Below, one piece after another: positions 1 to 63,880 of a stretch of DNA of 64,000 nt. Every line of letters begins with the position of its first letter. The first letter of the stretch is position 1. Made by a program: the position numbers and the translations under genes. The DNA is from Candidatus Nomurabacteria bacterium RIFCSPHIGHO2_01_FULL_37_25 (lineage in GTDB: Bacteria; Patescibacteriota; Minisyncoccia; Phycocordibacterales; UBA9973). The stretch lies in contig MFTH01000010.1 in NCBI GenBank assembly GCA_001786765.1, positions 34,105 to 98,104 on the forward strand, written 5' to 3'. The notes under the pieces were generated by a model, which saw only the letters and a list, made by a program, of their open reading frames with translations, had not been told where the DNA came from and did not search any database.

Positions 1-188
1 ATGAAACACAATCTATTGATCAATTCTCTTATGGAGTTTCAGATCGAGGAGCATCTATCAGAATTCCAATTGCGTCAGTTCAAAATGGGTGGAAAGGTTG
101 GCTGGAAGACCGAAGACCGAATTCTGCCGCTGACCCTTATAAAGTTGCCGCTAGGATAATTAAAACAGTAAAAACTGTAAAACTATAA
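1..188 (+). CDS. Glutamine synthetase, C-terminal fragment (type II-like); 5' partial at window edge
   Basis: Frame 3 translates to ...FSYGVSDRGASIRIP...GWKGWLEDRRPNSAADPY..., ending at TAA 186-188; this matches the conserved C-terminal motifs of GSII-type glutamine synthetases. Confidence 0.5.
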   Translation, partial: ETQSIDQFSYGVSDRGASIRIPIASVQNGWKGWLEDRRPNSAADPYKVAARIIKTVKTVKL

Positions 189-332
189 ATTTGCAAAAAA
201 ATTATCTTTTGTGTAATCCCATTAGATACTCTAATAAAAAATTTATATAATATTTTCCCCTATATTTTACTTTTATTTATATCTCTGATACATTCTTTGA
301 TGAGTATCTAACGGGACAGATACTTAATTTTT

Positions 333-2618: not shown

Positions 2619-2650
2619 ACAGTGTATAAATTTAGATATATAATTCTCTT

Positions 2651-4126
2651 ATGAAAAATGCATATGACGTCGGAGAAATACTAAAATTGATGGGAAAAAT
2701 AAATAAGAAAGAAGAAGAACTTATAATAAAAGCTTATAGGTTTGCGCAGCGCGCGCATGAAGGTCAAAAAAGATTAAGCGGAGAACCTCATTTCACTCAC
2801 CCTTTTGAAACAGCCAAAACTTTAGCTTCACTGGGTATGGACGCGGAAACAATCTCGGCCGGATTAATGCATGATGTTCTGGAAGATACTAAGACAGGAG
2901 AAGAAGAAATGAGAAAAGAATTTGGAGAAAATATAGTTTTTCTAGTAAATGGCGTGACAAAACTTGGAACTTTGAAATATAGAGGACACGAAAGACATGT
3001 GGAAAGTTTGAGGAAATTCTTTGTGGCGATGGCAAATGATCTACGCACAGTTATCATAAAGTTTGCCGACAGACTGCATAATTTAAAAACTTTGGAATTT
3101 TTAAGAGAAGATAAAAGACGTAGGATTGCCATAGAATCAATCGAAGTGTATGCGCCACTGGCTAACCGTCTAGGTATGGGAAAATTTAAAGGCGAACTGG
3201 AAGACGCCGCTTTTCCGTTTGCTTTTCCAGAAGAATATAAACAAACCGAAGAAATAATAAAAGAAAAAAAAGATTTATATGAAAAAAACTTAGACGAAAT
3301 ACAGAAAAAGCTTCGAAAAGAATTGAATAAAAACAAAATCAAAGTGGTGGAAATAAATTATAGAATGAAACATAAGTACAGCTTATGGAAAAAACTCTTA
3401 AAGCGCGAAATGGATATAGAAAAAGTATATGACCTGATCGCTTTGCGGGTGGTAGTAGAAAGCATAGAAGAATGTTATAGAGTGTTAGGAATAATACATT
3501 CCCTTTGGAATCCATTACCCGGCAGGATAAAAGACTACATCGCGGTGCCAAAACACAATGGCTACCGCTCCATTCACACCACTATTTTCACCGGTTCGGG
3601 CGGAATCGCAGAAATTCAAATACGAACAAAAGAAATGCATGCCGAAGCGGCTTATGGTATCGCGGCTCATTTCGCCTACAAAGAACAAGGAAATAAAAAA
3701 GTGGAAAATGATAAATCAAAATTCAAATGGATAGAAGAATTAAAAAATTTGAATTACTCTCCGGATGAACCAAAAAAATTCATTGAGCATTTAAAGATGG
3801 ATTTTTTTAATGATCGCATTTTCGTTTTTACACCCAAGGGGGATGTAATAGATATGCCAGAGGATTCGTGTTCGCTTGATTTTGCTTATTTGATACATTC
3901 GGATATCGGAGAACATACCTTTGGCGCAAAAGTCAACGGCAAAATGGTTCAGCTTTTTACAAAATTAAAAAACGGAGACATTGTGGAAATAATAACTAAA
4001 AAAGATTCCAGACCGTCCAGAAAGTGGTTAGAATTCGTAAAAACTTCTGTCGCTAAAAAACATATAAGATCATATCTGGAAAAAAACACCTTACTTGCTA
4101 GGCTTAAATCTTTCGGTCGTTCTTAA
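2651..4126 (+). CDS. rel: Small bifunctional (p)ppGpp synthetase/hydrolase (RelA/SpoT homolog; HD + synthetase + TGS, no ACT domain)
   Basis: HD motif HDVLEDT, synthetase motifs (YRSIHTTI), TGS-like C-terminus. Confidence 0.88.
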   Translation: MKNAYDVGEILKLMGKINKKEEELIIKAYRFAQRAHEGQKRLSGEPHFTHPFETAKTLASLGMDAETISAGLMHDVLEDTKTGEEEMRKEFGENIVFLVNGVTKLGTLKYRGHERHVESLRKFFVAMANDLRTVIIKFADRLHNLKTLEFLREDKRRRIAIESIEVYAPLANRLGMGKFKGELEDAAFPFAFPEEYKQTEEIIKEKKDLYEKNLDEIQKKLRKELNKNKIKVVEINYRMKHKYSLWKKLLKREMDIEKVYDLIALRVVVESIEECYRVLGIIHSLWNPLPGRIKDYIAVPKHNGYRSIHTTIFTGSGGIAEIQIRTKEMHAEAAYGIAAHFAYKEQGNKKVENDKSKFKWIEELKNLNYSPDEPKKFIEHLKMDFFNDRIFVFTPKGDVIDMPEDSCSLDFAYLIHSDIGEHTFGAKVNGKMVQLFTKLKNGDIVEIITKKDSRPSRKWLEFVKTSVAKKHIRSYLEKNTLLARLKSFGRS

Positions 4127-5142
4127 ACGCTAAAATTAGAAATATTATATAAATCACTATCATCCCCGCCTGCCAATTGGCGGGCAGGTTTTTTAATTTC
4201 TTCTTTTGATCTATCATCGATCGGCGTATCTTCAATTTCTATATCAGATTTGTTTTTATTGATGTAGTTTTGAAGCATTTCCGCTTGCGCCGGCAAGATG
4301 TTTGATTTATTTTCACTGTTTGATTTATTTATCAAACTCAAAATAGTCCGCAGGTCTTCTATGGAAAAATAATCTATCTTGATTTGTCCGCCTAATTCTT
4401 TTCTGTCAATATGCACGCGGGTGCCTAATTTTTCTTGAAATTCTTCTTCGAGTTCAGTTATTTCTGGATCTGGCATAAACTCTTTCTTGCGTACTCGGTC
4501 ATAAGCTATTTTCCTTGCTAGTCTTTCCGCTTCACGCACGGTAATTTTTTTATATACAATTTCTTTAAATAATACTAACTGCTCTTCTCCATGATCGGCT
4601 AACATTAGTAATGGTCGTGTATGACCTTCGGTAATTTTACCTTCAGACAAACCGGCTATTATTTCTTCGGGTAAAGTTAAAATACGCAAAGAGTTAGACA
4701 CATATTCCCTACTCCTGCCCATTTTTTTTGCAATCTCATTATGAGTAAATTTAAATTCATTAGCTAATCGAAAAAAAGCGCGAGCGCGATCAACAGCATT
4801 CAAATCTTCACGTTGCAAGTTTTCAATAATGGCGAGTTCAAGCTTCATAATAGCAGTGTCCCCAGCTCGGATTATAACTGGCACTTGCGAGACTCCAGCC
4901 AAAATAGCCGCGCGCAATCTGCGTTCACCTGCTATGAGCTCATATTCAGTAACTAGTCCACCTCCATCTTTTTCCACTTCCATGCGAGAAACTGTCAACG
5001 GCTGGAGCACTCCGTATTGTTTTATGGAATCAGATAAATCTTGCAGACGCATTTCATCAAAATCCCGTCTTGGTTGATATGGGTTGGGTTTTATTTTATC
5101 GGTGTCAATCCAGAAAATTGAATTTGAATATAAATTAGACAT
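4123..5142 (-). CDS. parB: ParB/Spo0J-like partition protein
   Basis: ParB box LIAGERRLRAA, HTH region, C-terminal extension. Confidence 0.82.
   Translation of the reverse strand: MSNLYSNSIFWIDTDKIKPNPYQPRRDFDEMRLQDLSDSIKQYGVLQPLTVSRMEVEKDGGGLVTEYELIAGERRLRAAILAGVSQVPVIIRAGDTAIMKLELAIIENLQREDLNAVDRARAFFRLANEFKFTHNEIAKKMGRSREYVSNSLRILTLPEEIIAGLSEGKITEGHTRPLLMLADHGEEQLVLFKEIVYKKITVREAERLARKIAYDRVRKKEFMPDPEITELEEEFQEKLGTRVHIDRKELGGQIKIDYFSIEDLRTILSLINKSNSENKSNILPAQAEMLQNYINKNKSDIEIEDTPIDDRSKEEIKKPARQLAGGDDSDLYNISNFSV
4164..4194. terminator. GC hairpin (CCGCCTGCC..GGCGGGCAGG) plus T-run between convergent rel and parB
   Basis: Stem-loop followed by TTTTTT; bidirectional position. Confidence 0.6.
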
Positions 5143-5215
5143 AAAGTCATTCTAACACATAAAGAATTTTTTAAAATTGATTTTTAAGTATTTTTGTGTA
5201 AAATGTGTGGATACT

Positions 5216-5302
5216 GCCCAGGTGGCGGAATTGGTAGACGCGATAGACTCAAAATCTATTGATGGCAACATCATGAGAGTTCGATTCTCTCCCTGGGCAC
5301 CA
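5216..5302 (+). tRNA. tRNA-Leu(CAA), long variable arm, CCA encoded
   Basis: Acceptor GCCCAGG/CCTGGGC, anticodon loop CTCAAAA, T-loop GTTCGATTC; preceded by TTGATT-17-TAAAAT promoter. Confidence 0.85.
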
Positions 5303-5437
5303 GAAAGGAAAAATTATGTTATACTAAATATAGTCACCAAAACCGCAAAAGAACCCGGAGAAAAACACTCGGCTCGCCTGCCCGCCTCTGGAGGGAACCA
5401 TATTTTGAATTTTGGGGGAAGAAAATTTTTTAATCAT

Positions 5438-6259
5438 ATGAATTCAAAAAAGATAATATTGATTATAGTTTCCTTAGTTCTTGTAGCTGGAGTTGGTTTT
5501 TATTTTTATGGCTTACCACCTATAAAATACTGGACTAAAAATCCGACCAACTTTGAAGAATGCAAAGAAGCTACACGAGGATTTATCATAAAAACATTAC
5601 CGGCCCAATGCGAGTTTCGAGGACAGAATTTTGTGGACCAATCGCAATAGACTCCACCAGTAACAACAAATAATCCTCCAGTAACCACGACAGAGAATCC
5701 TTCTCTATCAGCAGATAAAAAGAGTGTCGTTGCAGATGGTAAGGTTTTGTTAGCCATTGATAATGATACAATTTTTAATTGGTTCAAAACCGAAAGCCAG
5801 TTATGTGATGGATACAATCTAACCAGCAATCCTGATCGCAAGATGTTTTGTGAAAACAAAACATCTTTCAAGAACCAAACTAAATTTGCCTCAGTTGTTG
5901 TTTCTCCTGATAAAATGAAAATTGGTTTTACCATAGAAAGCGATACGTTGTCTCCTGATAAAGTTGTTGGCATTTTTTTACGCTCTACCAATAAAGTTAA
6001 TATTCTGACCAATTACTATCTCGGAAATGAATTTATTAGTTTTTCTCCGAGTGGTGCCAACTTTGTTTATCAAAGTGGCTGTTTTGAGGGAATATGCGGA
6101 CTGTTTGTCAAAAATTCCGAAACCTTTGCTATCAAAGCTAGTTTGAATAATCCCGAGTTTGCCGATTACAGAAGTCAGAATGCCATTTTTGTAAGATGGA
6201 TTTCAGACAATCAAGTTGAATATAAACTTGGGACAGAATTAAAACAAGAGTCGTTTTAA
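5438..6259 (+). pseudogene. Secreted membrane-anchored protein with PT-rich linker, interrupted by an in-frame TAG at 5648-5650 (N-terminal part 5438-5650, remainder 5651-6259 in the same frame)
   Basis: ATG 5438, TM anchor, in-frame amber stop, then TPPVTTNNPPVTTTENPS linker and a globular domain with no internal ATG before 5747. Confidence 0.4.
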
Positions 6260-19970: not shown

Positions 19971-20025
19971 TACTACGAAACATAAATTGAGATAACTTCT
20001 TAAGATTTCCGCATATGCAGAAATC

Positions 20026-20817
20026 TCACGAAACAATCACCGTAAACTCCCCTTTTTGTTTAACAGGGTTTTGAATTAAGTAATCTAAAATTTCTTTCGG
20101 CGTACCGGTTTTCAATTCTTCATAAATTTTTGTCAGTTCACGGGCGATACAGACTTTTTTATTGGGGCAAAATTTAGTGAGTGATTCTAAAGTTTTTAAA
20201 ATTCGATGTGGAGATTCGTAAAATACCATTGTTCTTTTTGATTCGGCAATTTCCTTAAATAAAGTTTCTCTGCCTTTTTTATGCGGTAAAAATCCTAAAA
20301 AAGTAAATTCGTGTGTCGGCAATCCAGAAGCAGAAAGCGCAGTGATAACAGCACTTGGTCCTGGTATAGGAATCACATCTACGACTATGTTAACATTCTC
20401 TGCGATAGCAGAGTTTGTTAAAAAGTTAAATTTTTCTCTAAACCCTTTAGAAGAAGGGTGAAGCGATTCAGCTTTGTTGAATTTAGCTTTTATCTCTGAG
20501 ACAAGCATAGCGCCAGGGTCTGATATCGTGGGAGTGCCAGCGTCAGAAACCAATGCCAAATTTTTCCCCCCTTCCAATAACTCAAAAATCTTTGCTAATT
20601 TACTGTTTTGTCTAGAGTTTTTCCCGGCAACATCGTCAGACGGATAGCTCATCGTTGGCGTATTAATATTGTATTTTTCTAAAATTTTTTTCGTCTGTCG
20701 CGTATCCTCACACAATATCAGATCAACACTTTTTAGTGTTTCAATCGCTCGGAGTGTGATATCCTGCAAATTCCCTATCGGCGTGGCAATAACATAAAAT
20801 TTAGACATTTTGATCAA
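20026..20817 (-). CDS. rsmI: 16S rRNA 2'-O-methyltransferase RsmI (tetrapyrrole-methylase family)
   Basis: YVIATPIGNLQDITLRAIETLKSVDLILCEDTR N-terminus. Confidence 0.85.
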   Translation of the reverse strand: MIKMSKFYVIATPIGNLQDITLRAIETLKSVDLILCEDTRQTKKILEKYNINTPTMSYPSDDVAGKNSRQNSKLAKIFELLEGGKNLALVSDAGTPTISDPGAMLVSEIKAKFNKAESLHPSSKGFREKFNFLTNSAIAENVNIVVDVIPIPGPSAVITALSASGLPTHEFTFLGFLPHKKGRETLFKEIAESKRTMVFYESPHRILKTLESLTKFCPNKKVCIARELTKIYEELKTGTPKEILDYLIQNPVKQKGEFTVIVS

Positions 20818-21379: not shown

Positions 21380-21871
21380 TTATCTCCTATATTTTCTAGC
21401 GCGCCATTTATCAGCGATTTTTACACGAGTAAGTGATCGCTCGAGTTCCGCTTCAAAATGTTCAAAATCTACATGTTCTTTATTCTGCATAGCCACCTTC
21501 ATCTCTTCTGCTCGAGTTTTTGCTTTTTCTATTTTCTCGTCTGAAATTTCAAATACATGTTCTGCAAAATCAGCCAAAATAGCCACTTCTGTCACATAAT
21601 CTAAACTTTTCCCCGACGCTTCTGGTCGGGGTTCCGACCCTTCTAGGCATCGGGATTTTATTTCCACAAAACCACCAGAAACTGCCATTGGTATATTCTC
21701 GCCTTTTGAGATTCCCACCACATCTCCCGAAGCAAGACCCACAATAAGAGGTATGTGCCCCGGCAAAACAGAGATTTCACCCTCCGTAGTGGGTATAACA
21801 ACTTCATCCACCATCTCTTCTAACACAAGACGTTCTGGGGTAACTATTTTTAATTTTAATTGTTTTGCCAT
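21380..21871 (-). CDS. atpC: ATP synthase F1 epsilon subunit (probable start MAKQLKLKIV; ORF track extends to 21949); carries a 17-aa in-frame insertion encoded by a GC-rich double hairpin
   Basis: Epsilon beta-sandwich and C-terminal helices; inserted SRCLEGSEPRPEASGKS segment encoded by 21611-21655. Confidence 0.85.
   Translation of the reverse strand: MAKQLKLKIVTPERLVLEEMVDEVVIPTTEGEISVLPGHIPLIVGLASGDVVGISKGENIPMAVSGGFVEIKSRCLEGSEPRPEASGKSLDYVTEVAILADFAEHVFEISDEKIEKAKTRAEEMKVAMQNKEHVDFEHFEAELERSLTRVKIADKWRARKYRR
21611..21655. repeat. GC-rich double-hairpin palindromic element (family P2), in-frame inside atpC
   Basis: CCCCGACgcttctgGTCGGGG plus a second CCGAC..TCGGG hairpin; ~60% GC in an AT-rich gene; copies at 47574-47618 and 36083-36122. 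Confidence 0.7.
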
Positions 21872-21997
21872 ATGTTTTTTGAAAATAAAATAGTTCTTTA
21901 GAAAAGCCTTGCGCAGGCTGTCGAGCCGAGCAGTTCGCTGGCGTAGCAACGCCAGATAGATTGCTTTTATAAAGAATCTATTTTATTTTCAAAGAAA

Positions 21998-23377
<1,380 letters not shown>

Positions 23378-35676: not shown

Positions 35677-35712
35677 AAGGTTTGTTTCTATCTTTTTTAT
35701 AATGTATACAAC

Positions 35713-35860
35713 TTTGAATTACGAAACTCGTCGAAGGCATGTCTTTTTTAGGGGGTTTCGAGGCTGTCGAGCCGAGAACTTCAGGATTTTTTAAGCTTAA
35801 AAAAATCCGTACCCTAGAAAAAGACATGCCTAGAAAGAGTTTTGTAATTCATGATATACA
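35713..35860. mobile_element. MITE-like element copy 1 (~148 bp, 17-bp TIRs TTTGAATTACGAAACT / AGTTT[TC]GTAATTC[AA])
   Basis: TIRs flank a core with GGCTGTCGAGCCGAG and the perfect palindrome GGATTTTTTAAGCTTAAAAAAATCC. Confidence 0.75.
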
Positions 35861-35979: not shown

Positions 35980-36054
35980 TGGTGAGCGTGGATGGAATCG
36001 GACCATCGGCCTCTGTCTTATCAGGACAGCGTTCTACCACTGAACTACACGCTC
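35980..36054 (-). tRNA. tRNA-Ile(GAT) with atypical T-loop (TCCGATT), CCA encoded
   Basis: Reverse complement GAGCGTGTAGTTCAGTGGTAGAACGCTGTCCTGATAAGACAGAGGCCGATGGTCCGATTCCATCCACGCTCACCA; canonical cloverleaf but C at the usually invariant U55. Confidence 0.65.
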
Positions 36055-36122: not shown

Positions 36123-36147
36123 CTACACGCTCAAAACTTGTGAATTA

Positions 36148-36300
36148 CGAAACTCGTCGAAGGCATGTCTTTTTTAGGGGGTTTCGAGGCTGTCGAGCCG
36201 AGAACTTCAGGATTTTTCAACCTGCCTGCCGGCAGGCAGGGCTTCGAAAAATCCGTATCCTAGAAAAAGACATGCCTAGAAAGAGTTTCGTAATTCAAAG
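36148..36300. mobile_element. MITE-like element copy 2 with nested CCTGCCTGCCGGCAGGCAGGG palindrome replacing the central AAGCTT hairpin
   Basis: Same TIRs and core as copy 1; 36221-36241 carries the P1 palindrome. Confidence 0.75.
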
Positions 36301-36335
36301 TCAAAACATAAACAAATATAACATAAACAAAACAA

Positions 36336-46536: not shown

Positions 46537-46570
46537 GTCTAAGATTTCCGCATATGCGGAAATCTTAGAC
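46537..46570. repeat. 34-bp perfect palindrome GTCTAAGATTTCCGCATATGCGGAAATCTTAGAC (family P3) between convergent genes
   Basis: Perfect dyad; related copies at 20003-20026 and 52081-52106 with half-site 51429-51447. Confidence 0.8.
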
Positions 46571-49354: not shown

Positions 49355-50050
49355 TTAATCCATCCAATTTTTGACTTTTAATGCCATTTCAGCGGCTTTT
49401 TGTTCCGCTTCCTGTTTTGATTTACCACGACCTTCAGCTATCAAATTAGACCCAAAAAAAATACCGACTGTAAAATGTTTATCATGGTCTGGACCTGATT
49501 CACTGAGAACTCTGTACGCTGGCGTAAGGTTTATAAATTCCTGCGCTTTTTCCTGCACTAGAGATTTTGCATCACGCCAAAGTTTCTTTGCCACTATTTC
49601 TTCTGTTTTAGGTAAAAGAGATTCGCGTACAAATTTATCTACTGCCTTTATTCCTTGATCCAGATATAAAGCCCCGATATACGCTTCATATGTATTTGCT
49701 AAAATATATTGCCTTGCTTTGCCATTGTCCTTTTTCTCACCCTTGGATAAAAGCAGATAATCATTCATGCCCATAACTGTCGCAACCTCAGAAATAATGA
49801 CAGCGTTGACCAAAGCTGAACGCAAAGCGGTCAATTCCCCTTCTGTGCAATTTGGATATTTTTTGTAAAGAAAATCAGTTACGATAAGTTCCAGCACAGC
49901 ATCACCCAAGAATTCTAAACGCTCATTGTGTGACAGCTTGGTTGATGCATTCTCATTTATGTAAGAACGATGTATAAAAGCCTGCTCTAACAAACTCTTA
50001 TTTTTAAAAATTATCTTAGTTTTTTTCTCAAAATTTGAAAACTGAATCAT
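49355..50050 (-). CDS. rnc: Ribonuclease III
   Basis: ERLEFLGDAVLEL signature plus dsRBD. Confidence 0.92.
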   Translation of the reverse strand: MIQFSNFEKKTKIIFKNKSLLEQAFIHRSYINENASTKLSHNERLEFLGDAVLELIVTDFLYKKYPNCTEGELTALRSALVNAVIISEVATVMGMNDYLLLSKGEKKDNGKARQYILANTYEAYIGALYLDQGIKAVDKFVRESLLPKTEEIVAKKLWRDAKSLVQEKAQEFINLTPAYRVLSESGPDHDKHFTVGIFFGSNLIAEGRGKSKQEAEQKAAEMALKVKNWMD

Positions 50051-50061
50051 ATTTTTTATTT

Positions 50062-51072
50062 TTATTTTTTAAGCTTATCAACTTTTTTTTCATTCCCCTT
50101 TAATATATGAACTGCTTTTGCAATAAGCGGAATAATATCATTATAAATACGAAGCTCCGGCACTTCTGTCATCTCAAACCACCTAGCGCCATCAAGTCCA
50201 CCAGACTTTTCTAGCTCCAATTCTTTATACTCGCTATATGCCAAAAAGTAAACAACCTTCTTCAGACTTTTACCACGCTCTGGATGTGTCGCCACATATT
50301 CATTCCTTCCAAGTTCTTCTTTTATTACAATATCCAACCCAATTTCCTTTTTAATCGTTTTTATCGTGGCTTCTTTTATATCTTGATATTCTTCAGCTTT
50401 GCCTTTAGAAAGAGTCCAGTAGCCAAAGACGTCGTGCACAAATGCAAATAAAATAGTATTATCGGTTCCTGATTCTGAACTATTATATGAACCAGTAGGC
50501 TTTTTCGCATATACTAATGCGCCCACTAGATTCTCAACTGGCAATTGAGTAACATCTATTACTTCTTTCTGCTTTTTAGATTCAACATCATTTATATTTT
50601 TTTGATATGTTTTTTTATGTCCTTTGTCGGGCTCGCCTATTTCTTTGTAAACTGCGCCGAGCACACCATTTACAAATTTACCAGAATTTTCCCCGCCGAA
50701 AGTTTTAGCTAATTCTATAGCTTCATTGATTGCCACTTTCGGAGGCACCTGGGACCTATCACCAAACAAAAGTTCAGTTAACCCAATTCGTAGGATATTT
50801 CTATCAACAATAGAGATTTTATCTACCGGCCAGTCTGGCGCAGCCTTTTCCATAATCTCATCAATTATCACTCGCTTTTTTAAAATTTTATCGATTAAAG
50901 AAAATACAAAGGGATCTTCCTCAATCCCAGGAGCAAATTCTTTTAAATTTCTATTTAATGCCGTCTTTATATAGTCGTCAACAAAACTATCCCCTTTTTT
51001 TTCTATAGGTAAGAAATCCCACTCAAAAAGCGTTTGAAGCACTATTGATCTTGAAAGGTGCCTATTTGCCAT
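50062..51072 (-). CDS. nusB: NusB-like N-terminal domain fused to C-terminal NUDIX hydrolase
   Basis: NusB motifs (VDRNILRIGLTELLF, KFVNGVLGAV), then NUDIX box GKAEEYQDIKEATIKTIKKEIGL. Confidence 0.75.
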   Translation of the reverse strand: MANRHLSRSIVLQTLFEWDFLPIEKKGDSFVDDYIKTALNRNLKEFAPGIEEDPFVFSLIDKILKKRVIIDEIMEKAAPDWPVDKISIVDRNILRIGLTELLFGDRSQVPPKVAINEAIELAKTFGGENSGKFVNGVLGAVYKEIGEPDKGHKKTYQKNINDVESKKQKEVIDVTQLPVENLVGALVYAKKPTGSYNSSESGTDNTILFAFVHDVFGYWTLSKGKAEEYQDIKEATIKTIKKEIGLDIVIKEELGRNEYVATHPERGKSLKKVVYFLAYSEYKELELEKSGGLDGARWFEMTEVPELRIYNDIIPLIAKAVHILKGNEKKVDKLKK

Positions 51073-51459: not shown

Positions 51460-52080
51460 TTAAAATAAATGAAAATTTTTCTTTAACTTTTCTTCTCTTA
51501 AGAAGTTTTCTACAGTCAAAACCTCCACATATTTCCCCACTCCAAAGAAATCAGCAATAAAGATTATTTCGTCTTCACAAGGATAAGGATAAATCCAAGC
51601 GGATTTTTGAAATTGGAAAAAATTTAATTCTTTCAAATGATACCGTAATGCTTCTCTACCTTTTGTAAATCTCATCGGAATATCAAACATAACTAATCTC
51701 CATTTGCTATCCCATCTTTTTGGCTTGTTAATCTTCATCAGCTCAATATCGAAAGCTCTGAGTCTCGTATTTCCTTTTTTAGTAATTTTTACTATAGTTT
51801 TTCCGTTCTTGTCAGCGACATATTCTATGAGTTTTTGACGTCTAATATTATCAATAGCGCTTTGTATTTGTTTTTTAGAATACTTTTTAGATCCTTCAAA
51901 CATCTTAAAACATTGCACTGCATTACCCATAACTCCTGCGCCCAACACCAGCATAGGCATTAAAGATACAGCCAACACACAAAGAGCAACTGTGGAAATT
52001 TTTGCTTCAGTTGTATCAGACTCTAAAAAATCTTTTAATCTCTTTGAATACCCTGCTTTATTATTTTTTCCCATATACAT
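51460..52080 (-). CDS. PaaX-family-like regulator (N-terminal TM segment, wHTH, PaaX_C-like W..W.L..FDIP...LR..L...F.....S.W..P) bracketed by inverted half-palindromes
   Basis: RWDSKWRLVMFDIPMRFTKGREALRYHLKELNFFQFQKSAWIYP matches the PaaX C-terminal pattern; IRs at 51429-51447 and 52081-52099. Confidence 0.45.
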   Translation of the reverse strand: MYMGKNNKAGYSKRLKDFLESDTTEAKISTVALCVLAVSLMPMLVLGAGVMGNAVQCFKMFEGSKKYSKKQIQSAIDNIRRQKLIEYVADKNGKTIVKITKKGNTRLRAFDIELMKINKPKRWDSKWRLVMFDIPMRFTKGREALRYHLKELNFFQFQKSAWIYPYPCEDEIIFIADFFGVGKYVEVLTVENFLREEKLKKNFHLF

Positions 52081-52107
52081 AAGATTCTAGCATATGCGGA
52101 AATCTTA

Positions 52108-52245
52108 GGTAAATAATGCCTCCTTTTTATAGCTCATATGGAGGGCAGGGGCTTGCGCCCCTGCCCTAGAGAGGAAGGGGAAAGTCGATTGAATGGGCTA
52201 GGGGGGTCAGCAACTATTGTTGCTGACCCCCCCCTCCCAAAATAT
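52108..52245 (+). other. GC-rich highly structured element upstream of thrS (two perfect long hairpins inside a GGAGGG/CCCTCC outer stem)
   Basis: GGGCAGGGGCttgcGCCCCTGCCC (10 bp) and GGGGGGTCAGCAACtattGTTGCTGACCCCCC (14 bp). Confidence 0.5.
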
Positions 52246-52264
52246 TATTAACAAAAAATAGATA

Positions 52265-54043
52265 ATGTGTGATATTATAAATAACATAAATTATATGAAC
52301 GAAAATAATAAACTGCAAAATTTAAGACATACTTTAGCCCACTTACTCGCCGCATCTATAAGGGCAATTTATAAAGATTCTCAAAATGCCATTGGTCCGG
52401 CCATAGACGATGGCTTTTATCAGGATTTTGAGTTGGTTGAACCAATTTCCGAAAATGATTTACCAAAAATAGAGAAAAAAATGCGAGAGCTTTTGAAAAA
52501 GTGGAACGCTTTTGAAAAACGAGAAGTAACCCCGCAAGAAGCAAAAAAAGAGTTTGCTTGGAATAAATACAAAGTTGAATTAATTGAAGAATTTGCAAAA
52601 GACGGGAAAAATCTGACTTTCTACACTTGTGGTGATTTTATAGATTTGTGCAAAGGAGGACATTTAGAAAATCCTAGTAAAGAACTTCCGTTTGACGCTT
52701 TCAAACTAGACCGTGTGGCCGGAGCTTACTGGCGTGGAGATGAAAAGAATAAAATGCTTACGCGTATTTATGGTTTAGCCTTTGAAACCAAAGAAGAATT
52801 AGACGCATACATAATGCAAAGAATAGAAGCAGAGAAAAGAGACCACAGAGAGTTGGGCAAAAAATTAGAATTATTCACTTTTGATGAAGAGGTCGGGAAG
52901 GGTCTGCCTATTTGGTTGCCAAAGGGAAATATAATTAAAGAAGAATTAGAAAATTGGGCAAAAGAGACAGAAAAAAAATGGAATTACCAAAGAGTCACGA
53001 CCCCAATAATCACAAAAGAAAATTTGTTTTACACCTCTGGGCATTTGCCTTTATACAAAGAAAGCATGTATGCGCCTATATCTATCGAAGAAGAAAATTA
53101 CTATATAAAACCGATGAATTGTCCTTTTCATCATAAAGTATTTTCTGCCCTTCCCAGAAGTTATAAAGATTTGCCTCTTCGTCTGGCAGAATACGGATGG
53201 TGTCATAGATATGAAGATTCTGGAAGTCTTTTTGGGCTGATGAGAGTGCGTGGAATGCAAATGAATGATGCTCACATATATACAACACAAGAGCAAGCGA
53301 TAAATGAATTTGTGGATGTAATAAGATTGCACGAATATTATTACAAAGTGCTTGATATAGATAAATATGAGATGGAATTGGCTTTGCGAGATCCAAAAAA
53401 AATAGATAAATATCATGGCGAAGAAAAAGATTGGAAAATGGCAGAAGAAATGACAATAAAAGCTATGGAACTCTCAGGAGTGCCGTTTAAGATAGTCCAT
53501 GAAGGAGCCGCCTTTTACGGACCAAAAATGGATTTCCAAATATATTCTTCTATCGGCAGATCTTTCACTGCTTCAACAAATCAATTAGATTTATACATGG
53601 GTAAAAGATTCAAGTTAGAATATACAGACAAAGATGGGTCTAGAAAAACACCATTTATAATACACCGAGCTCCGCTTGGAACCCACGAAAGATTTATTGG
53701 ATTTTTAATAGAACACTTTGGCGGCGCCTTCCCTCTTTGGCTTTCGCCTGTACAGGTCAAGGTCATACCCGTGCGGGAAAATCATAATGAATACGCGAGA
53801 AAAATTTTTGAATCATTAAGAGAAAATAATATCCGCGTAGAACTTGACGAAGGAGACCAAAACCTAGGCACGAAAGTTCGTGACGCTAAAAATAACAAGC
53901 TACCCTACTGGATAGTCGTCGGTGATAAAGAAATTGAAGCGAATAAAATAACTTTAGAATCACGCGATTCCGGTCAGCTTGGGCAAATGAGTCGCGAAGA
54001 ACTCATAAAAAAACTTTTGGAAGAAATAAAGAATAAAAAATAA
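52265..54043 (+). CDS. thrS: Threonyl-tRNA synthetase lacking the N-terminal TGS domain
   Basis: Editing/SAD HxxxH (HTLAHLL), class II motifs, anticodon-binding domain. Confidence 0.9.
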   Translation: MCDIINNINYMNENNKLQNLRHTLAHLLAASIRAIYKDSQNAIGPAIDDGFYQDFELVEPISENDLPKIEKKMRELLKKWNAFEKREVTPQEAKKEFAWNKYKVELIEEFAKDGKNLTFYTCGDFIDLCKGGHLENPSKELPFDAFKLDRVAGAYWRGDEKNKMLTRIYGLAFETKEELDAYIMQRIEAEKRDHRELGKKLELFTFDEEVGKGLPIWLPKGNIIKEELENWAKETEKKWNYQRVTTPIITKENLFYTSGHLPLYKESMYAPISIEEENYYIKPMNCPFHHKVFSALPRSYKDLPLRLAEYGWCHRYEDSGSLFGLMRVRGMQMNDAHIYTTQEQAINEFVDVIRLHEYYYKVLDIDKYEMELALRDPKKIDKYHGEEKDWKMAEEMTIKAMELSGVPFKIVHEGAAFYGPKMDFQIYSSIGRSFTASTNQLDLYMGKRFKLEYTDKDGSRKTPFIIHRAPLGTHERFIGFLIEHFGGAFPLWLSPVQVKVIPVRENHNEYARKIFESLRENNIRVELDEGDQNLGTKVRDAKNNKLPYWIVVGDKEIEANKITLESRDSGQLGQMSREELIKKLLEEIKNKK

Positions 54044-54047
54044 CCTA

Positions 54048-54190
54048 GTTTGAATTACGAAACTCTTACTTGGCATATCTTTTTCTAGGGTACAGATTTT
54101 TTGAAGCTTAAAAAATCTTGAAGTTTGCTCGCCGTCGCTCGCAAAACCCCCTAAAAAAGACATGCCTGCGACAAGTTTCGTAATTCAAAG
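54048..54190. mobile_element. MITE-like element copy 3 (opposite orientation, ~85% identity to copy 1), followed by a degenerate partial copy at ~54205-54275
   Basis: Same 17-bp TIRs TTTGAATTACGAAACT...AGTTTCGTAATTCAAAG and AAGCTT-centred internal hairpin. Confidence 0.75.
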
Positions 54191-54337
54191 TTAATTAGTA
54201 TAAATTCCAAAAAAACTCGTCGCAGGTGTAGTTTTTGGTAGACATTGCGCAGGCTGACGAGCCGAGCATAGCAAATTTTCAGCAGAAAATTATGCGTGTC
54301 TAACAAAAATTATACCGAGAAAGAGTTTTTTTGGAAT

Positions 54338-55466: not shown

Positions 55467-55709
55467 TTATGATTTAAACATTATATTTGCTAATTTTATT
55501 GCGGAAGGTCTGATAGCTGAAACAGAGATATTGTTGAGTGTTTTTTGAACTTCAGAAACACCATAAAAAGATTTTATCCATCGCCAATGGTCTAAATCCC
55601 CATACGCAATGGTATTTGTAATAATCGTATTCTTCATCGTTTTTGGATCGCATTTTTCAAAATCATATGACCAAAGAATGGAGCGAAATATTTCGGGTAG
55701 CCTTTTCAT
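55467..55709 (-). CDS. Hypothetical small protein (possible remnant)
   Basis: 80-aa ORF, no motif. Confidence 0.2.
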   Translation of the reverse strand: MKRLPEIFRSILWSYDFEKCDPKTMKNTIITNTIAYGDLDHWRWIKSFYGVSEVQKTLNNISVSAIRPSAIKLANIMFKS

Positions 55710-55747
55710 ACTTGTATATTATAACAACAAATAAGCGGCAAAAATAC

Positions 55748-55952
55748 TTGACTTTTTCATTTTATTGTGCTATACTATAAGGGTAATAAGGTCTTTGAAA
55801 ATATAATATGTTTCGAGTTATTCTTGAGTGGTTCGCCCATCAAGTAGCTAAAGAAATTTAGCTCTTTGCTCGGCGAACGACTCGAAAAATAAATCCATTC
55901 CGACGAAAGTCGGAATACAACATGCGTCTATGAGGCGCAAAGGGAGAAGGAA
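55748..55952 (+). promoter_or_regulatory. Promoter (TTGACT-17-TATACT) plus ~170-nt structured leader, copy 1
   Basis: Near-identical promoter and colinear leader at 57351-57556, with compensatory stem changes. Confidence 0.65.
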
Positions 55953-56672
55953 ATGGAAACCAAGAAAAGACGGCGGAATCCCTGGGGCCCAGTTTTAAAA
56001 AATCCAAAGGCAACACAGGACACTGCAGTTGGGACTGCAGTTCCACCGCCACAGAAGAAACAAAAGATGGTGGAATGGCTGGTGGGGGGGATATTTATTT
56101 TTCTGGTCCTGGTATGCGGATTCTACTTTGAGTTCGCGTACCGAGTCCTGGCTGTAGTTGGGCTCGGGATCACCATGGCTGTACTCATGGTACAGTCTAT
56201 CTTCTCCGAGAAAGAGGTGAGTTTTTGGACCACCTTGGGAAAGGTTGTTGGAAACAACAACTGGATTTACTGGTGGATCTTCTTGTCTGGGATGGCTTGT
56301 CTCCTGATAGGATTTTTCTCAAACAACATTCCGAGAAAAATCTATACGGTGCTTGTCATAATAGACAATCCTGTAAGTCCCGGTAATTGGAGTAAGGCCG
56401 CAGAGAGTCTTACTCTAGAGGACCCTTTTAAAAACAACGACGACAACCCCTTCCTCGCAACAAACGAAGGAACTCAAGGCAGTTCCCTCTTCGCAGGAGA
56501 GGAGGCGAAATGGGGTTTCGCCGGTCTTCAATTCCTCTTGCTGGCTCTGCCAGCAAGGTTCGTCTCTTACTGGGACGAAATGAAGAGGAAGGCGAAAAAA
56601 AAGGAGAAGGGCCAGAGCTGGATTAGCTGGTTCTTCAGCCACGTCCTCTTTGAATTAATCTGGCCTGGGTAG
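55953..56672 (+). CDS. Hypothetical polytopic membrane protein (GC-rich island)
   Basis: GC-rich ORF with SD AAGGGAGAAGGAA before the ATG; several TM helices. Confidence 0.5.
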   Translation: METKKRRRNPWGPVLKNPKATQDTAVGTAVPPPQKKQKMVEWLVGGIFIFLVLVCGFYFEFAYRVLAVVGLGITMAVLMVQSIFSEKEVSFWTTLGKVVGNNNWIYWWIFLSGMACLLIGFFSNNIPRKIYTVLVIIDNPVSPGNWSKAAESLTLEDPFKNNDDNPFLATNEGTQGSSLFAGEEAKWGFAGLQFLLLALPARFVSYWDEMKRKAKKKEKGQSWISWFFSHVLFELIWPG

Positions 56673-56693
56673 GTAATAGAGGAGACCAAAAAT

Positions 56694-57206
56694 ATGCCGA
56701 GAATCTTCATAATGTTGGTGGTGTTGGTGCTTTCAATTTACTCTTTTGGATGCGGGGGGGAGAATAAGTATGAAAAGACCATAAGTTCTGCTGAAAAGCA
56801 GGACAGGGATAGCCCCCCTGCAAATTATGAAGAGGCGCAAAAACGCTTCAACCAAGTAGCCAAGTATCTTGACTACTTGGAGAAGCATCCGGAGAGTTCT
56901 TCCCCAGAACTCACAGCAAGGGCAAAGGCCCTGCTGGATAGCCGTAAAGCGGCGGCTATGGCTAAAGGATGGAATGTCGCCGCCGGAGCGCTAGAGAAGG
57001 TAGTGCAAAAGGCGAAGGAAGTGGCGAAGGAAGTGCTGGGCACCATTGGCGTCACAGACCTACCCAGCGCTGCCAAAAAGGTCGAGGAGGCAAGAGATTG
57101 GGTCCTTAGGGACCCGGAAAGAGAAGAACAGTTCTCCTGCAAGGATATCGACGGTAACCCCGTCGACGTCACGAAGGAAGGTTTTGCCCATCTCTGCGTA
57201 AGGTAG
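56694..57206 (+). CDS. Hypothetical lipoprotein (GC-rich island)
   Basis: Signal peptide with lipobox-like ...YSFGC, helical body. Confidence 0.5.
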   Translation: MPRIFIMLVVLVLSIYSFGCGGENKYEKTISSAEKQDRDSPPANYEEAQKRFNQVAKYLDYLEKHPESSSPELTARAKALLDSRKAAAMAKGWNVAAGALEKVVQKAKEVAKEVLGTIGVTDLPSAAKKVEEARDWVLRDPEREEQFSCKDIDGNPVDVTKEGFAHLCVR

Positions 57207-57264
57207 AAAGGAGGAAAAAACTTACGCAGGTGGGGAGGGTGCGCGACCCTATAACGCGCAAATT

Positions 57265-57298
57265 GGGCGGACTCAGAAATGAGTACCGCCCTTTTTTT
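57265..57298 (+). terminator. Rho-independent terminator
   Basis: GGGCGGactcagaaatgagtaCCGCCC plus TTTTTTT. Confidence 0.75.
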
Positions 57299-57350
57299 AT
57301 TTTAATATTATAAAATAAGGATAAAATAGCTTTTTTGTCAAGATTAAACC

Positions 57351-57556
57351 TTGACTTTTTCATTTTATTGTGCTATACTATAAAGGTAATCAGGTCTTTG
57401 AAAATATAATATGTTCTGAGTCATTCTTGAGCAGTTTGCCTATCAAGTAGCTAAAGAGATTTGGCTCTTTGCTTGGCAAACGAGCTCAAGGAATGGAAAC
57501 TTCTCTGGTGAAAGCCAGAGTACAAATGCGTCATCTTGACGCGAAAGGAGTCCACA
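57351..57556 (+). promoter_or_regulatory. Promoter (TTGACT-17-TATACT) plus ~170-nt structured leader, copy 2
   Basis: See copy 1; the ORF-track ORF 57469-57702 lies inside the leader and is probably not coding. Confidence 0.65.
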
Positions 57557-58654
57557 ATGTGGACATTGATTATTTTATTAGCGGCCAGTTACTGGGCATC
57601 CACTGGGATACCCGGGTGGCCGTTGTCAACATGGCAGACGTCCCTGGTGGCGGGAGCCCTATATGGGCTCTATCGACTGGCGTGCTGGATGCAGTGGATT
57701 GATGGTGGCCATCATACCACCACACCAGTTAGCACCGCCGCCGGACACAGTGGAGGAAGTGGTGGTATGTGGGGAGGGATACCAAAGCTAGGACTTTGGT
57801 ACGTTCTCACAACCGCCCTAATGATGATAGGTACATACATAGTCAACGTGCAAAACGTTGACATGTTTATGTATTTCATAACATTAGGGGGACGGTCGTG
57901 GATTTATCCTTTATCCACAACGGATGCTATCCTCTGGACGTCTACCCTGGCTCTCATGTCAGCGGTCGCCTGGCTAGCAGTGGAGGGGAGATGGCGACCG
58001 GCTGGATGGATATTCGGGATAACCTTTATAACTCTCCTTGTTTTTAGGGAGTTCGGTCCGTTCTTCGAGGCGATCCGGCCGATCCCGAGCTCCGGTCCTG
58101 TCACGCCGGGCATCGGCGAAAGTCAAGAGAGGGCGGACCTGAACGCCGCCCTAGTCAAGCGAGGAGCGCTCCCCGTAGCGGGGGAGGTGGTGGCCAAGTT
58201 TGGGTTCGGGGAGGTAGACCCAAAGGAAGGTTTCCTCCTCGGCCTGGTTTCCCGAGGGTGGGTGTGGTGGATGGGCGCACCCACCTACGACCCCAAGAAG
58301 GGGGCAGTCCTGGGGAGATTGTATCAGTTTTGGGAATGGGCGGCTGGAGAAAGCCCACTCCCATCTCGCGCGCCGGCGGTAGTGTTTTCCCCCACCCCTG
58401 CGCCGGCGGGACCGCTGAGAAGCTGTTCCGTCCCCTGCGAGATGTGGGTGGATTGGGAGGAGGACATCAAAACGGGTGGGCGAGACGTTTTGGTCCTCTT
58501 CCACGGAAAGGAGGAATGGTTCCGCCTTTCCGGAGGGAATGAAAAGGATATCCCCAGGGAGGTTTTCTCCCCCGGCAAGGCAAAGTTTGCTTTGCCGGAC
58601 GACGGCGACGACGCGTCGCCCATAATGGTAAAAATTTTCGCGGCGAAAAAATAA
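57557..58654 (+). CDS. Hypothetical polytopic membrane protein with Pro/Gly-rich C-terminal region (GC-rich island)
   Basis: ATG at 57557 preceded by AAAGGAG; ~8 TM helices; ORF-track start 57536 is a TTG upstream. Confidence 0.5.
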   Translation: MWTLIILLAASYWASTGIPGWPLSTWQTSLVAGALYGLYRLACWMQWIDGGHHTTTPVSTAAGHSGGSGGMWGGIPKLGLWYVLTTALMMIGTYIVNVQNVDMFMYFITLGGRSWIYPLSTTDAILWTSTLALMSAVAWLAVEGRWRPAGWIFGITFITLLVFREFGPFFEAIRPIPSSGPVTPGIGESQERADLNAALVKRGALPVAGEVVAKFGFGEVDPKEGFLLGLVSRGWVWWMGAPTYDPKKGAVLGRLYQFWEWAAGESPLPSRAPAVVFSPTPAPAGPLRSCSVPCEMWVDWEEDIKTGGRDVLVLFHGKEEWFRLSGGNEKDIPREVFSPGKAKFALPDDGDDASPIMVKIFAAKK

Positions 58655-58740
58655 AAATTTTTACCGCGAGCGCCTGACCAGCGCAAACGAGGTCAGAAAG
58701 GAGAAAGGCCACAATCGCGTCTGGCCAACGCACACAAAAG

Positions 58741-58773
58741 GGCGTCTCAACGAGACGCCCTTTTCTATTTTTA
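58741..58773 (+). terminator. Rho-independent terminator
   Basis: GGCGTCTCaacgGAGACGCC plus TTTTCTATTTTT. Confidence 0.8.
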
Positions 58774-58783
58774 CTAAACAGAA

Positions 58784-63212: not shown

Positions 63213-63880
63213 TCAAAGAGACACTTTGACATAATACAGTGAATGAGTAATAGAGATTATAAAAAATTTAATATTGGATCAATAGCTCACATTTACAACA
63301 GAGGAAATAACAAGGAAAAAATATTTTTTGATGATCAAGATTACAGAGCTTTTCTTTTTAGACTTGCTTTAGTTTTAGGATTTGACCAAAAAGAATTACA
63401 AAACGAAAACTTGTTAAGTATGCCTTATTCCAGAATACGAATTGAATTTAAAGGAAAAAATAAATTCAAAATACATGCTTTTTGTCTTATGCCAAATCAT
63501 TTTCATTTATTAATTGAGCAAGTTGGAGATACCTCAATTTCAAAATTAATTTCAAAAGTCTGTTCAAGTTATTCTAAATATATAAATAAAAAATATAAAC
63601 GTGTTGGACATACTTTTCAAGATTGTTTTAAAGCTGTAATTATTGAGAATAATCCTCAACTAATGTGGGTTTCGTCTTATATCCACATGAATGCAGTAAA
63701 AGATGGTTTGGTAAAACACCCTTCTGAATATTTATGGAGTAGTTACAACGATTACACTTCCCTCAGAAATTTACCGTTAGTTACAAAAGAATTATTAATA
63801 GAAACTTTTGGCGATGAGAAAAATTTTATAGAACAAACATTGAATTTTAGTGTCAAAGTGTCTCTTTGACACCCTTACCT
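63213..63880 (+). mobile_element. IS200/IS605-type element carrying a RAYT-like Y1 transposase, flanked by complementary hairpins
   Basis: Left hairpin TGTCAAAGagacacTTTGACA (63215-63235); right GTGTCAAAGtgtctcTTTGACAC (63855-63877), the reverse complement of the left. Confidence 0.7.
63243..63869 (+). CDS. tnpA: IS200-like / REP-associated tyrosine transposase (HuH Y1)
   Basis: HuH motif LMPNHFHLL, catalytic Tyr region (WSSYNDY), ~200-aa RAYT-length form. Confidence 0.78.
   Translation: MSNRDYKKFNIGSIAHIYNRGNNKEKIFFDDQDYRAFLFRLALVLGFDQKELQNENLLSMPYSRIRIEFKGKNKFKIHAFCLMPNHFHLLIEQVGDTSISKLISKVCSSYSKYINKKYKRVGHTFQDCFKAVIIENNPQLMWVSSYIHMNAVKDGLVKHPSEYLWSSYNDYTSLRNLPLVTKELLIETFGDEKNFIEQTLNFSVKVSL

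Follow-up and report, generated by a model that had tools for sequence, protein, structure and literature searches.

A conserved, repeated RNA leader upstream of a GC-rich envelope operon in Nomurabacteria, and what it may do

Why should two unrelated membrane-protein genes of one bacterium each be preceded by the same promoter and by the same long, structured leader? The question is raised by a 64,000-nt stretch of Candidatus Nomurabacteria bacterium RIFCSPHIGHO2_01_FULL_37_25 (assembly GCA_001786765.1, contig MFTH01000010.1, positions 34,105 to 98,104 of the forward strand; hereafter the window). The two leader copies, A and B, were taken as 55747-55952 and 57350-57556; copy A precedes gene P1 and copy B gene P3. 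An earlier note, made from the letters of the window, had proposed that both form a functional RNA whose structure is conserved, such as a riboswitch or thermosensor. We find that the leader is a real and conserved cis-acting RNA that belongs to no catalogued family. Its promoter is close to the sigma-70 consensus, and the leader forms part of a Nomurabacteria-specific, persistently GC-rich envelope operon.

The window contains just two copies of a 34-nt string (CTTGACTTTTTCATTTTATTGTGCTATACTATAA), one at 55747 and one at 57350, a match that appeared in none of 100 shuffled sequences. A repeat finder aligned 55747-55880 with 57350-57483 (134 nt, 90% identity), and weaker similarity runs on to the start codons at 55953 and 57557. 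Identity drops in the 5' to 3' direction, from 62 of 64 positions over the promoter and the first leader bases to ~86% over the long hairpin and ~55% beyond it. The promoter scan returned TTGACT-17-TATACT with an upstream TG (TGcTATACT) at both copies, so the identical promoters and colinear leaders claimed in the earlier note are borne out by exact-string, repeat and promoter searches alike. The -35 element, the T-run following it and the -10 element are kept in the orthologous loci L009, L064, L065, L067 and L070. Transcription of leader A probably starts at the G of a conserved GUAA, 5-6 nt past the -10 element. A second, internal promoter (TTGAAA-18-TATTCT) was rejected, being absent from the homologs. 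A leader peptide was rejected as well: copy A has a 17-codon open reading frame, copy B stops after 2 codons and nothing of either is conserved. Covariance models R1 and R3 recovered just copies A and B in the window, while weak matches at window positions 21867-22003 and at L009 681-815 were unrelated when inspected. The element is not a dispersed repeat of the miniature inverted-repeat transposable element or repetitive extragenic palindromic type: the 64 kb contain two copies and each related locus one or two, and without exception these precede P1 or P3 orthologs.

Both copies are predicted to fold in the same order: a long irregular hairpin (the P1 hairpin), hairpin 2, a short GC-rich hairpin 3, the Shine-Dalgarno (SD) sequence and the ATG, these last two being reached by both leaders as had been claimed. 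The folding energies are -57.0 (A) and -64.6 (B) kcal/mol, each with z = -5.29, and 0 of 200 shuffles folded as well. The 32 pairs that were checked all hold in A as well as in B, with five double compensatory changes between the two. In the P1 hairpin, the quoted pairing TTCGCC/GGCGAA versus TTTGCC/GGCAAA is present and embodies a double change from C-G to U-A. A GAAA loop caps hairpin 2 in A and B alike, again as described, and the seven shared pairs of this hairpin include three double changes and one single change; hairpin 3 contributes one double and two single changes. A sixth compensatory pair (U-A to C-G) is seen at the base of the P1 hairpin after a structure-guided 1-nt shift of the copy B 3' strand. 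For hairpins 2 and 3 the proposed pairings and common geometry held, whereas the description of their stems as entirely different did not, since about half of their pairs are identical. The apical loops of the P1 hairpin are of the GNRA class in both copies (GAAA in A, GAGA in B). In copy A, the minimum-energy fold allows pairing between the SD region and a UUCUU stretch. Copy B has a 6-bp hairpin, GUCCAC-AAU-GUGGAC (57551-57565), without equivalent in copy A, and the P3 start codon falls where the loop of this hairpin meets its stem.

Is this structure kept elsewhere? Related contigs were fetched from the list of P3 relatives together with two GTDB genomes, and the same operon was found in seven more genomes. 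The homologous leaders number 11 copies in eight genomes (the window included), each directly upstream of a P1 or P3 ortholog. They were found by covariance model or by eye and all are detected by model R3, which also recovered the insertion-bearing copies that models R1 and R2 had missed. The leader core is 55-85% identical across species and the P3 proteins 26-47%, which makes the leader the best-conserved part of the locus; the product of gene P1 is 57% identical to its L009 homolog. The known distribution is narrow, with eight genomes of the Nomurabacteria/Patescibacteria clade so far. An exact 23-mer scan of contigs from GTDB-representative genomes gave no match (the source genome is not a representative), and exact-pattern scans of viral contigs gave none bar one chance match. 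Of the 53 stretches returned by a two-block pattern scan of metagenomes, a single one proved real, namely L029, which is the L009 contig. No match was found in a phage collection by blastn or tblastn, so that a phage moron origin is unsupported. Rfam 15 reported tRNAs only, both in the window at the gathering threshold and among the homologous leaders of L064, L065, L067, L069 and L070; for 55600-57700 at E <= 10 the best scores were 12-22 bits against thresholds of 50-100.

Covariation was scored on alignment A11, made of the nine best + strand matches. In the P1 hairpin, 96.7% of 212 cells form standard pairs and 9 of the 24 pairs have changed on both sides (18 cells). None of 500 column shuffles reached the observed pairing or covariation, and sliding the 3' partners by 1-3 columns left 25-50% paired with 0-3 covarying pairs. 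One G.U pair is invariant (9/9) and several others recur; covariance-model scores were 30-121 bits on the + strand versus 28-57 on the - strand. These G.U pairs and the higher scores identify the + strand as the transcribed RNA. Seven other genomes with homologous leaders, together with the covariation on the long hairpin, thus uphold the earlier idea of a functional RNA whose structure is conserved. The middle of the P1 hairpin is strongly conserved in sequence too (GUUUGCC, AAG.AGCU, GGCU.UUUG and GGCAAAC), and its internal loop varies (C.C / A-U / U.C versus C-G / A-U / U-A). In five copies the apex is closed by a tetraloop of the GNRA or UUUA kind; in the other six it is interrupted by GC-rich insertions of 47-130 nt, with the stem kept. 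Distal to the P1 hairpin lie one or two GC-rich hairpins with unconserved loops (GAAA, CUAA, GCAA, UUCG and others). In 9 of 11 copies a gap of 3-6 nt separates the last of them from the SD, and the unsplit operons L066 and L070 repeat the layout of GC hairpin then SD between P2 and P3. The SD itself is predicted to be open, with a probability of being unpaired of 0.6-0.9 in 9 of 11 folded copies; an AUG near or inside a small hairpin occurs solely in copy B and L009. No U-tract follows the leader hairpins, hence there is no leader terminator.

In all six copies the apical insertions hold GC-rich hairpin elements, with CCYCC..GGRGG ahead of GCUAGGGG-like runs. L070 has a further copy of this element just upstream of the promoter (3465-3545), which suggests a small mobile or duplicating repeat.

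The operon exists in two arrangements. It is unsplit (leader-P1-P2-P3) in L009, L069 and L070; in L066, too, P3 comes directly after P2. The split form, with leader-P1-P2-terminator and promoter-leader-P3 as separate units, is found in the window, L064, L065 and L067, and P3 keeps a complete leader whenever it is split off. Two leader lineages can be distinguished: a P1-type (AAGGAGCUAA...UUGGCUUUUUGAUGGGCGAAC), usually with an apical insertion, and a P3-type (CAAGUAGCUAAAGAAAUUU.GCUCUUUGCU.GGC.AAC). In the P1-type leaders L064a, L069 and L070 the helix comprises at least 26 nearly continuous base pairs. L064 has one leader of each type. In the window both are P3-type and nearly identical in their 5' halves; the 5' halves are homogenised in L065 and the 3' ends in L067. 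Judged from these sequences, the leader duplication is old and common to several species, and the near-identity of leaders within a genome is best read as gene conversion rather than recency. Because each split unit bears a homologous module in its 3' untranslated region (UTR), it would seem that the whole transcription unit was duplicated, with reciprocal gene loss afterwards. In L064 an rve-family integrase (an insertion sequence element; 2155-3102, - strand) is inserted between P2 and the second promoter-leader.

The genes themselves encode a multi-pass membrane protein (P1), a predicted lipoprotein (P2) and a membrane protein with a C-terminal beta domain (P3), none of which matches Pfam or NCBIfam. 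The P1 and P3 proteins are unrelated; the repeat is therefore not a gene duplication, and a single promoter-leader module drives non-homologous genes. A word-indexed protein search gave one homolog for P1 and none for P3, so that P3 looked like an ORFan, a view overturned by an exhaustive HMMER search with 45 relatives (cluster representatives). The AlphaFold model of P3 (predicted local distance difference test score 48.6) is too poor for a fold search. Many proteins returned by the exhaustive search share with P3 only its C-terminal ~100 residues (~263-363; 58340-58651), as a domain of its own, and no Pfam model matches this domain.

P1, P2 and P3 form an island of 48-57% GC in a genome of ~35% GC, and the excess is found at synonymous sites: GC content at third codon positions (GC3) is 0.58-0.63 in the island versus 0.27-0.42 in its neighbours. 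In every orthologous operon examined GC3 is 0.58-0.75 against 0.27-0.48 in flanking genes, despite proteins at 25-57% identity. This persistence across diverged operons argues that the anomaly does not stem from recent transfer; selection on the mRNA and biased gene conversion are possible causes. The 3' UTR modules consist of an SD-like GAAAGGAG(G), a block AUCGCG..GGCC..CGCACACAAAAGGG and an intrinsic terminator, and homologous modules follow the last gene of each unit in L009, L067 and L064. To the right of the operon lie five T4SS_pilin (VirB2-like) genes in an array. Such an array adjoins the operon in every locus with visible flanking genes. The divergent upstream genes differ among genomes (DUF6922, HicB-like, RelE-like, tRNAs). 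Coordinates are collected in Table 1.

Table 1. Positions of the leader, its parts, the associated genes and the homologous features in related loci
Feature	Locus	Position	Strand	Remarks
Promoter A	Window	55748-55776	+	-35 TTGACT 55748-55753, 17-nt spacer, TG 55768-55769, -10 TATACT 55771-55776
Leader A	Window	55783-55952	+	5' UTR of gene P1; R1 206 bits, R3 120.7 bits
5' motif, copy A	Window	55792-55810	+	UCUUUGAAAAUAUAAUAUG; boxA-like, predicted single-stranded, identical in both window copies
P1 hairpin, copy A	Window	55824-55885	+	24 modelled pairs, GAAA apical loop, invariant G.U wobble
Hairpin 2, copy A	Window	55897-55916	+	AUUCCGAC-GAAA-GUCGGAAU
Hairpin 3 (GC clamp), copy A	Window	55923-55939	+	2 nt ahead of SD run GGGAG 55942-55946; start codon 55953
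Gene P1	Window	55953-56672	+	239-aa multi-pass membrane protein; GC 48%, GC3 0.58
Gene P2	Window	56694-57206	+	170-aa predicted lipoprotein (signal peptide + Cys); GC3 0.59
3' UTR module after P2	Window	57207-57299	+	SD-like AAAGGAGG, terminator hairpin 57265-57291, T-run
Promoter B	Window	57351-57379	+	Same sequence as promoter A
Leader B	Window	57386-57556	+	5' UTR of gene P3; R3 112.2 bits
5' motif, copy B	Window	57395-57413	+	
P1 hairpin, copy B	Window	57427-57490	+	GAGA loop
Hairpin 2, copy B	Window	57503-57520	+	
Hairpin 3, copy B	Window	57527-57543	+	
SD, copy B	Window	57547-57550	+	GGAG
Gene P3	Window	57557-58654	+	365-aa membrane protein, C-terminal beta domain; GC 57%, GC3 0.63
3' UTR module after P3	Window	58655-58775	+	SD-like GAAAGGAG, conserved block, terminator 58736-58764
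rnc	Window	49355-50050	-	RNase III with dsRBD; candidate trans-acting enzyme for the P1 hairpin
NusB-NUDIX fusion gene	Window	50062-51072	-	NusB domain 2e-32; candidate binder of the boxA-like motif
Leader homolog	L009	9733-9898		
Leader homolog	L063	1-131		
Leader homologs	L064	617-857, 3203-3355		
Leader homologs	L065	~2789-3097, ~4706-4997		
Leader homolog	L067	1655-1886		Plus 3' fragment 1-61
Leader homolog	L069	1-266		
Leader homolog	L070	3611-3839		
Apical GC-rich element	L064	~687-760		
Apical GC-rich elements	L065	~2905-3000, ~4790-4880		
Apical GC-rich element	L067	1741-1787		
Apical GC-rich element	L069	~68-195		
Apical GC-rich element	L070	3676-3745		
GC-rich operon	Window	55953-58654		
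GC-rich operon	L009	9899-12236		
GC-rich operon	L064	858-4360		
GC-rich operon	L065	~3098-6002		
3' UTR module	L009	12237-12335		
3' UTR module	L064	2003-2075		
3' UTR module	L067	1469-1580		

What, then, might the leader do? Our preference is tentative and falls somewhat short of an even chance: the leader would be a constitutive expression module, made of an RNase III-type processing stem and a protective GC clamp, rather than a sensor. This reading starts from the conservation, covariation and strand of the leader, its predicted open SD, the lack of terminators and the RNase III gene that the window carries; from these we infer cleavage of the leader, stabilisation and any effect on expression. 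RNase III requires little sequence specificity. The P1 hairpin, a helix of 24-30 bp, has the form of an RNase III site (a coaxially stacked helix of ~20 bp or more, or two turns, with a dispensable apex) and could act as the processing stem. Its apex would be irrelevant to function, and we propose that apical insertions are tolerated because the apex does not matter to processing. Cleavage at the P1 hairpin would remove the 5' segment. The new 5' end would then be protected by the GC clamp hairpin, located 3-6 nt ahead of the SD, and the clamp would also keep the SD from capture by the GC-rich coding RNA. The presence of a conserved 3' UTR module on each unit fits selection on mRNA-level properties. 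Several observations speak against the processing model. The sequence conservation in the middle of the P1 hairpin, with its invariant G.U, looks more like that of a site for a sequence-specific partner, and the model assigns no role to a conserved single-stranded motif near the 5' end. Moreover, 27-40 unpaired 5' nucleotides leave the primary transcript without a classical 5'-terminal stabiliser before cleavage, and the confinement of the leader to one operon is also compatible with gene-specific regulation. A 5'-terminal stabiliser of the ompA/aprE type on the primary transcript was considered separately and discarded, protection being possible only after processing.

The 5' motif deserves separate treatment. 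It is boxA-like, UCUUUGAAAAU at +10, and takes the form GGUCUUUGAAAAUAUAAU in the window copies; its general form is (G)UU(C/A)UUUGAAAAU.UAAU, starting ~9 nt past the conserved +1 GUAA. GAAAA(U/C) is found in all ten copies that retain the 5' end. Structure predictions leave the first 27-40 nt of the leaders unpaired or weakly paired, and the motif is unpaired in the centroid folds of both window copies. A small hairpin (P0) around the motif, considered as a conserved element, was dropped: it can form in winB, L064b and L065 and is absent from L009, L069 and L070. The core of the motif, UCUUUGAAAA, equals an rRNA-spacer block targeted by the primer GTTCTTTGAAAACTGAAT. We take this block to be the Gram-positive boxA, a string for which the literature gives indirect support only, via the mycoplasma spacer primer. 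The 5' half of the motif, including the equivalent of C4, varies in four of nine leaders (GUUAUUU, GUUAAUU, GUUACUC), the invariant part being GAAAAU; in E. coli, C4 of boxA is functionally critical. The block recognised by GTTCTTTGAAAACTGAAT is conserved in the rRNA spacers of Mollicutes/mycoplasmas (PMC3019172), and the L070 motif, GACCUUUGAAAAUUGAAU, matches the primer at 15 of 18 positions. Against the boxA consensus GYTCTTTAANA, which is gamma-proteobacterial (PMC5725501), the window motif scores 9 of 11 positions. In the window, YYTTTGAAAAY has 7 matches versus 2.95 expected, a string of low information in an AT-rich genome. A similar string, GUAAUUUGAAAAUUUAAAC, was seen in a tRNA-tRNA spacer of L070, a single case. 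Neither the window nor the fetched loci contained rRNA in the Rfam scans.

These features bring up an antitermination leader like that of rRNA operons (nut-like), in which the boxA at ~+10 to +27 (UUUGAAAA being the motif element at issue) would be bound by NusB and S10. RNA polymerase would become resistant to Rho and pausing on a codon-atypical operon, with the P1 hairpin standing in for boxB or serving as a processing stem. We regard this as unlikely, though several observations speak for it: the identity of the motif core with the rRNA-spacer block and its agreement with primer and consensus, the order of promoter, boxA-like motif and long stem as in rrn leaders, and the GC3 of the island (0.58-0.75 versus ~0.3 in neighbours), which implies slow translation and poor coupling. 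Co-opted boxA elements are known elsewhere than in rRNA, at suhB (PMC5725501) and at CRISPR arrays (PMC7665894), and NusB is encoded in the window. Set against this are the poorly conserved 5' half of the motif with its C4, the low information of the motif in such a genome, and the split units, which end in an intrinsic terminator followed by a fresh promoter, an odd design for processive antitermination. The NusB gene is a fusion with NUDIX (336 aa), an unusual combination, and immediately adjoins rnc. The NUDIX part might serve for decapping or as an RNA 5'-pyrophosphohydrolase, a combination with NusB that may bear on a boxA-like motif so close to the 5' end. Joining both lines of thought, a stable-RNA-type signal might have been co-opted for protein genes, the boxA 9 nt from the 5' end being read by NusB-NUDIX, with the RNase III processing stem downstream of it; we hold this to be less probable still. 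A dedicated regulator, or a product or partner of the operon, could instead recognise the P1 hairpin with or without the 5' motif and set the translation or stability of the P1-P2 and P3 mRNAs co-ordinately. Such an operator for a sequence-specific RNA-binding protein would best explain the conservation within the stem and the invariant G.U (9/9), and the conserved 5' motif speaks for it too. A permissive apex above a constrained mid-helix is what one would expect with a helix-recognising protein, and the leader is strictly tied to the operon and retained in full on split-off P3. Yet no nearby conserved candidate regulator was found, the upstream genes differing between genomes. P1, P2 and P3 are membrane or lipoproteins without an RNA-binding domain, and the SD is already free in the ground state predicted for the leader, with no conserved alternative pairing. 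The operator is therefore, to our mind, as doubtful as antitermination.

A riboswitch or RNA thermometer, as suggested in the earlier note, would refold upon binding a ligand or upon a change of temperature and so gate transcription or translation. The length of the leader and its stable, covarying fold are in keeping with this, as are the possible UUCUU-SD pairing of copy A and the start codon at a hairpin edge in copy B. There is, however, no expression platform, as U-tract terminators are absent and the SD is predicted to be open in most copies; the candidate anti-SD is not conserved in L064b, L009 and L069. It is the stems and the 5' single strand, rather than junctions or loops, that hold the invariant bases, while internal loops, loop sequences and hairpin number (1-2) vary and the apex accepts long insertions. 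Small-molecule aptamers show the opposite pattern of conservation, and thermometers pair the SD. No Rfam family matched even at E <= 10. The sensor mechanism is left unsupported and we consider it very improbable. Least probable of all, with hardly any weight in our judgement, is that the RNA has no function and that a promoter was recently duplicated with its flanks, the hairpins being incidental. The near-identity of the window copies over the promoter and first 64 nt and the unrelated proteins downstream could be so explained. This near-identity, like that in L065, is better explained by gene conversion, however, and the two-copy layout is common to L064, L065 and L067, with lineage-specific P1-type and P3-type leaders. 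Compensatory changes occur within and between genomes, and the leader is more conserved than the coding sequences. Recent duplication with drift, which had been named as the outcome that would refute a functional RNA, is removed by the age of the duplication and its presence in several species.

How do known systems compare? Processing hairpins of mRNA leaders cleaved by RNase III (phage T7 R1.1-type, early RNA of the B. subtilis phage SP82, E. coli rnc/pnp) are likewise long and irregular, with ~2 or more helical turns and small internal loops, and lie just past a strong promoter. They too are repeated before different genes of one element and have a dispensable apex, and structure downstream could stabilise the processed mRNA. 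They differ in having no sequence similarity to the leader, whose stem is far more conserved than recognition requires and which has an extra conserved single-stranded 5' motif; cleavage, here, is putative. With rRNA leaders and lambda nut the leader shares a strong promoter, a U-rich/A-rich single-stranded boxA-like motif and a stem. It shares with nutL/nutR the presence of two copies, one behind each promoter, and with rRNA the GC-richness of the downstream RNA relative to the genome. Unlike them, it drives translated membrane-protein genes and its boxA is poorly conserved in the 5' half; its hairpin is ~60 nt or longer versus the 15-nt boxB of lambda nut, and its units end in intrinsic terminators. 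The 5' stabilisers (ompA 5' UTR, aprE, cry3A STAB-SD, S-layer leaders) are also long leaders of envelope-protein genes with a stable hairpin beside the ribosome-binding site, and the SD-like GAAAGGAG elements of the 3' modules add to the resemblance. In our case, however, the unpaired primary 5' end means that protection would require prior processing, and the STAB-SD-like sequences sit in the 3' UTR and not, as in cry3A, in the 5' UTR. Riboswitches and thermometers (ROSE, fourU) resemble the leader as structured, covarying 5' UTRs immediately upstream of the SD; in contrast to them it lacks an expression platform, leaves the SD unsequestered, places conservation in stems rather than in a binding core and finds no match in Rfam.

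To our knowledge, next to nothing is known about gene regulation in Patescibacteria or Candidate Phyla Radiation (CPR) bacteria, which are uncultivated. VirB2-like pilin arrays are thought to mediate host contact. The leader is a covariation-supported, clade-specific cis-acting RNA of such bacteria, on an operon that adjoins VirB2-like pilin arrays. These arrays are a known CPR feature (bioRxiv 10.1101/2025.01.22.634366). The operon also poses a compositional puzzle, with its GC3 of 0.58-0.75 across species whose genomes are near 0.3 and its conserved modules at both ends of the mRNA. Should the leader turn out to secure the processing or stability of the mRNA, or antitermination, it would give an example of how expression of compositionally foreign genes is maintained in a streamlined genome, and would provide a portable expression element for CPR genetics. 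If a co-opted rRNA-type signal were involved, it would enable a CPR genome that is AT-rich and reduced to transcribe and retain an envelope operon that is permanently GC-rich and atypical in codon usage; GC-rich RNA, the Nus complex and RNase III would then link rRNA biogenesis with the expression of host-interaction genes.

Some further features of the window were recorded. A perfect 24-bp palindrome, AGATTTCCGCATATGCGGAAATCT, is present in three copies (~20001-20026, 46540-46565 and 52080-52105), one of them between a PaaX-like gene and thrS, and is a candidate operator or terminator. Immediately upstream of thrS, the region 52114-52264 (GGGGCTTGCGCCCC...GGGCTAGGGGGG) is GC-rich and apparently structured; Rfam assigned no family to it at the gathering threshold. 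An inverted-repeat element of ~150 nt (TGAATTACGAAACTCG...GACATGCC...) has copies at 35698-35858, 36124-36304 and 54034-54330, two of which flank a tRNA gene (35983-36054) and one of which lies between thrS and a TerC-family gene, and a related GC-rich core, GGCTGTCGAGCCGAG, is found at 21905-21925. Finally, a homolog of Y1 (IS200-like) transposases (208 aa; 63243-63869, + strand) is encoded between two methyltransferase genes.

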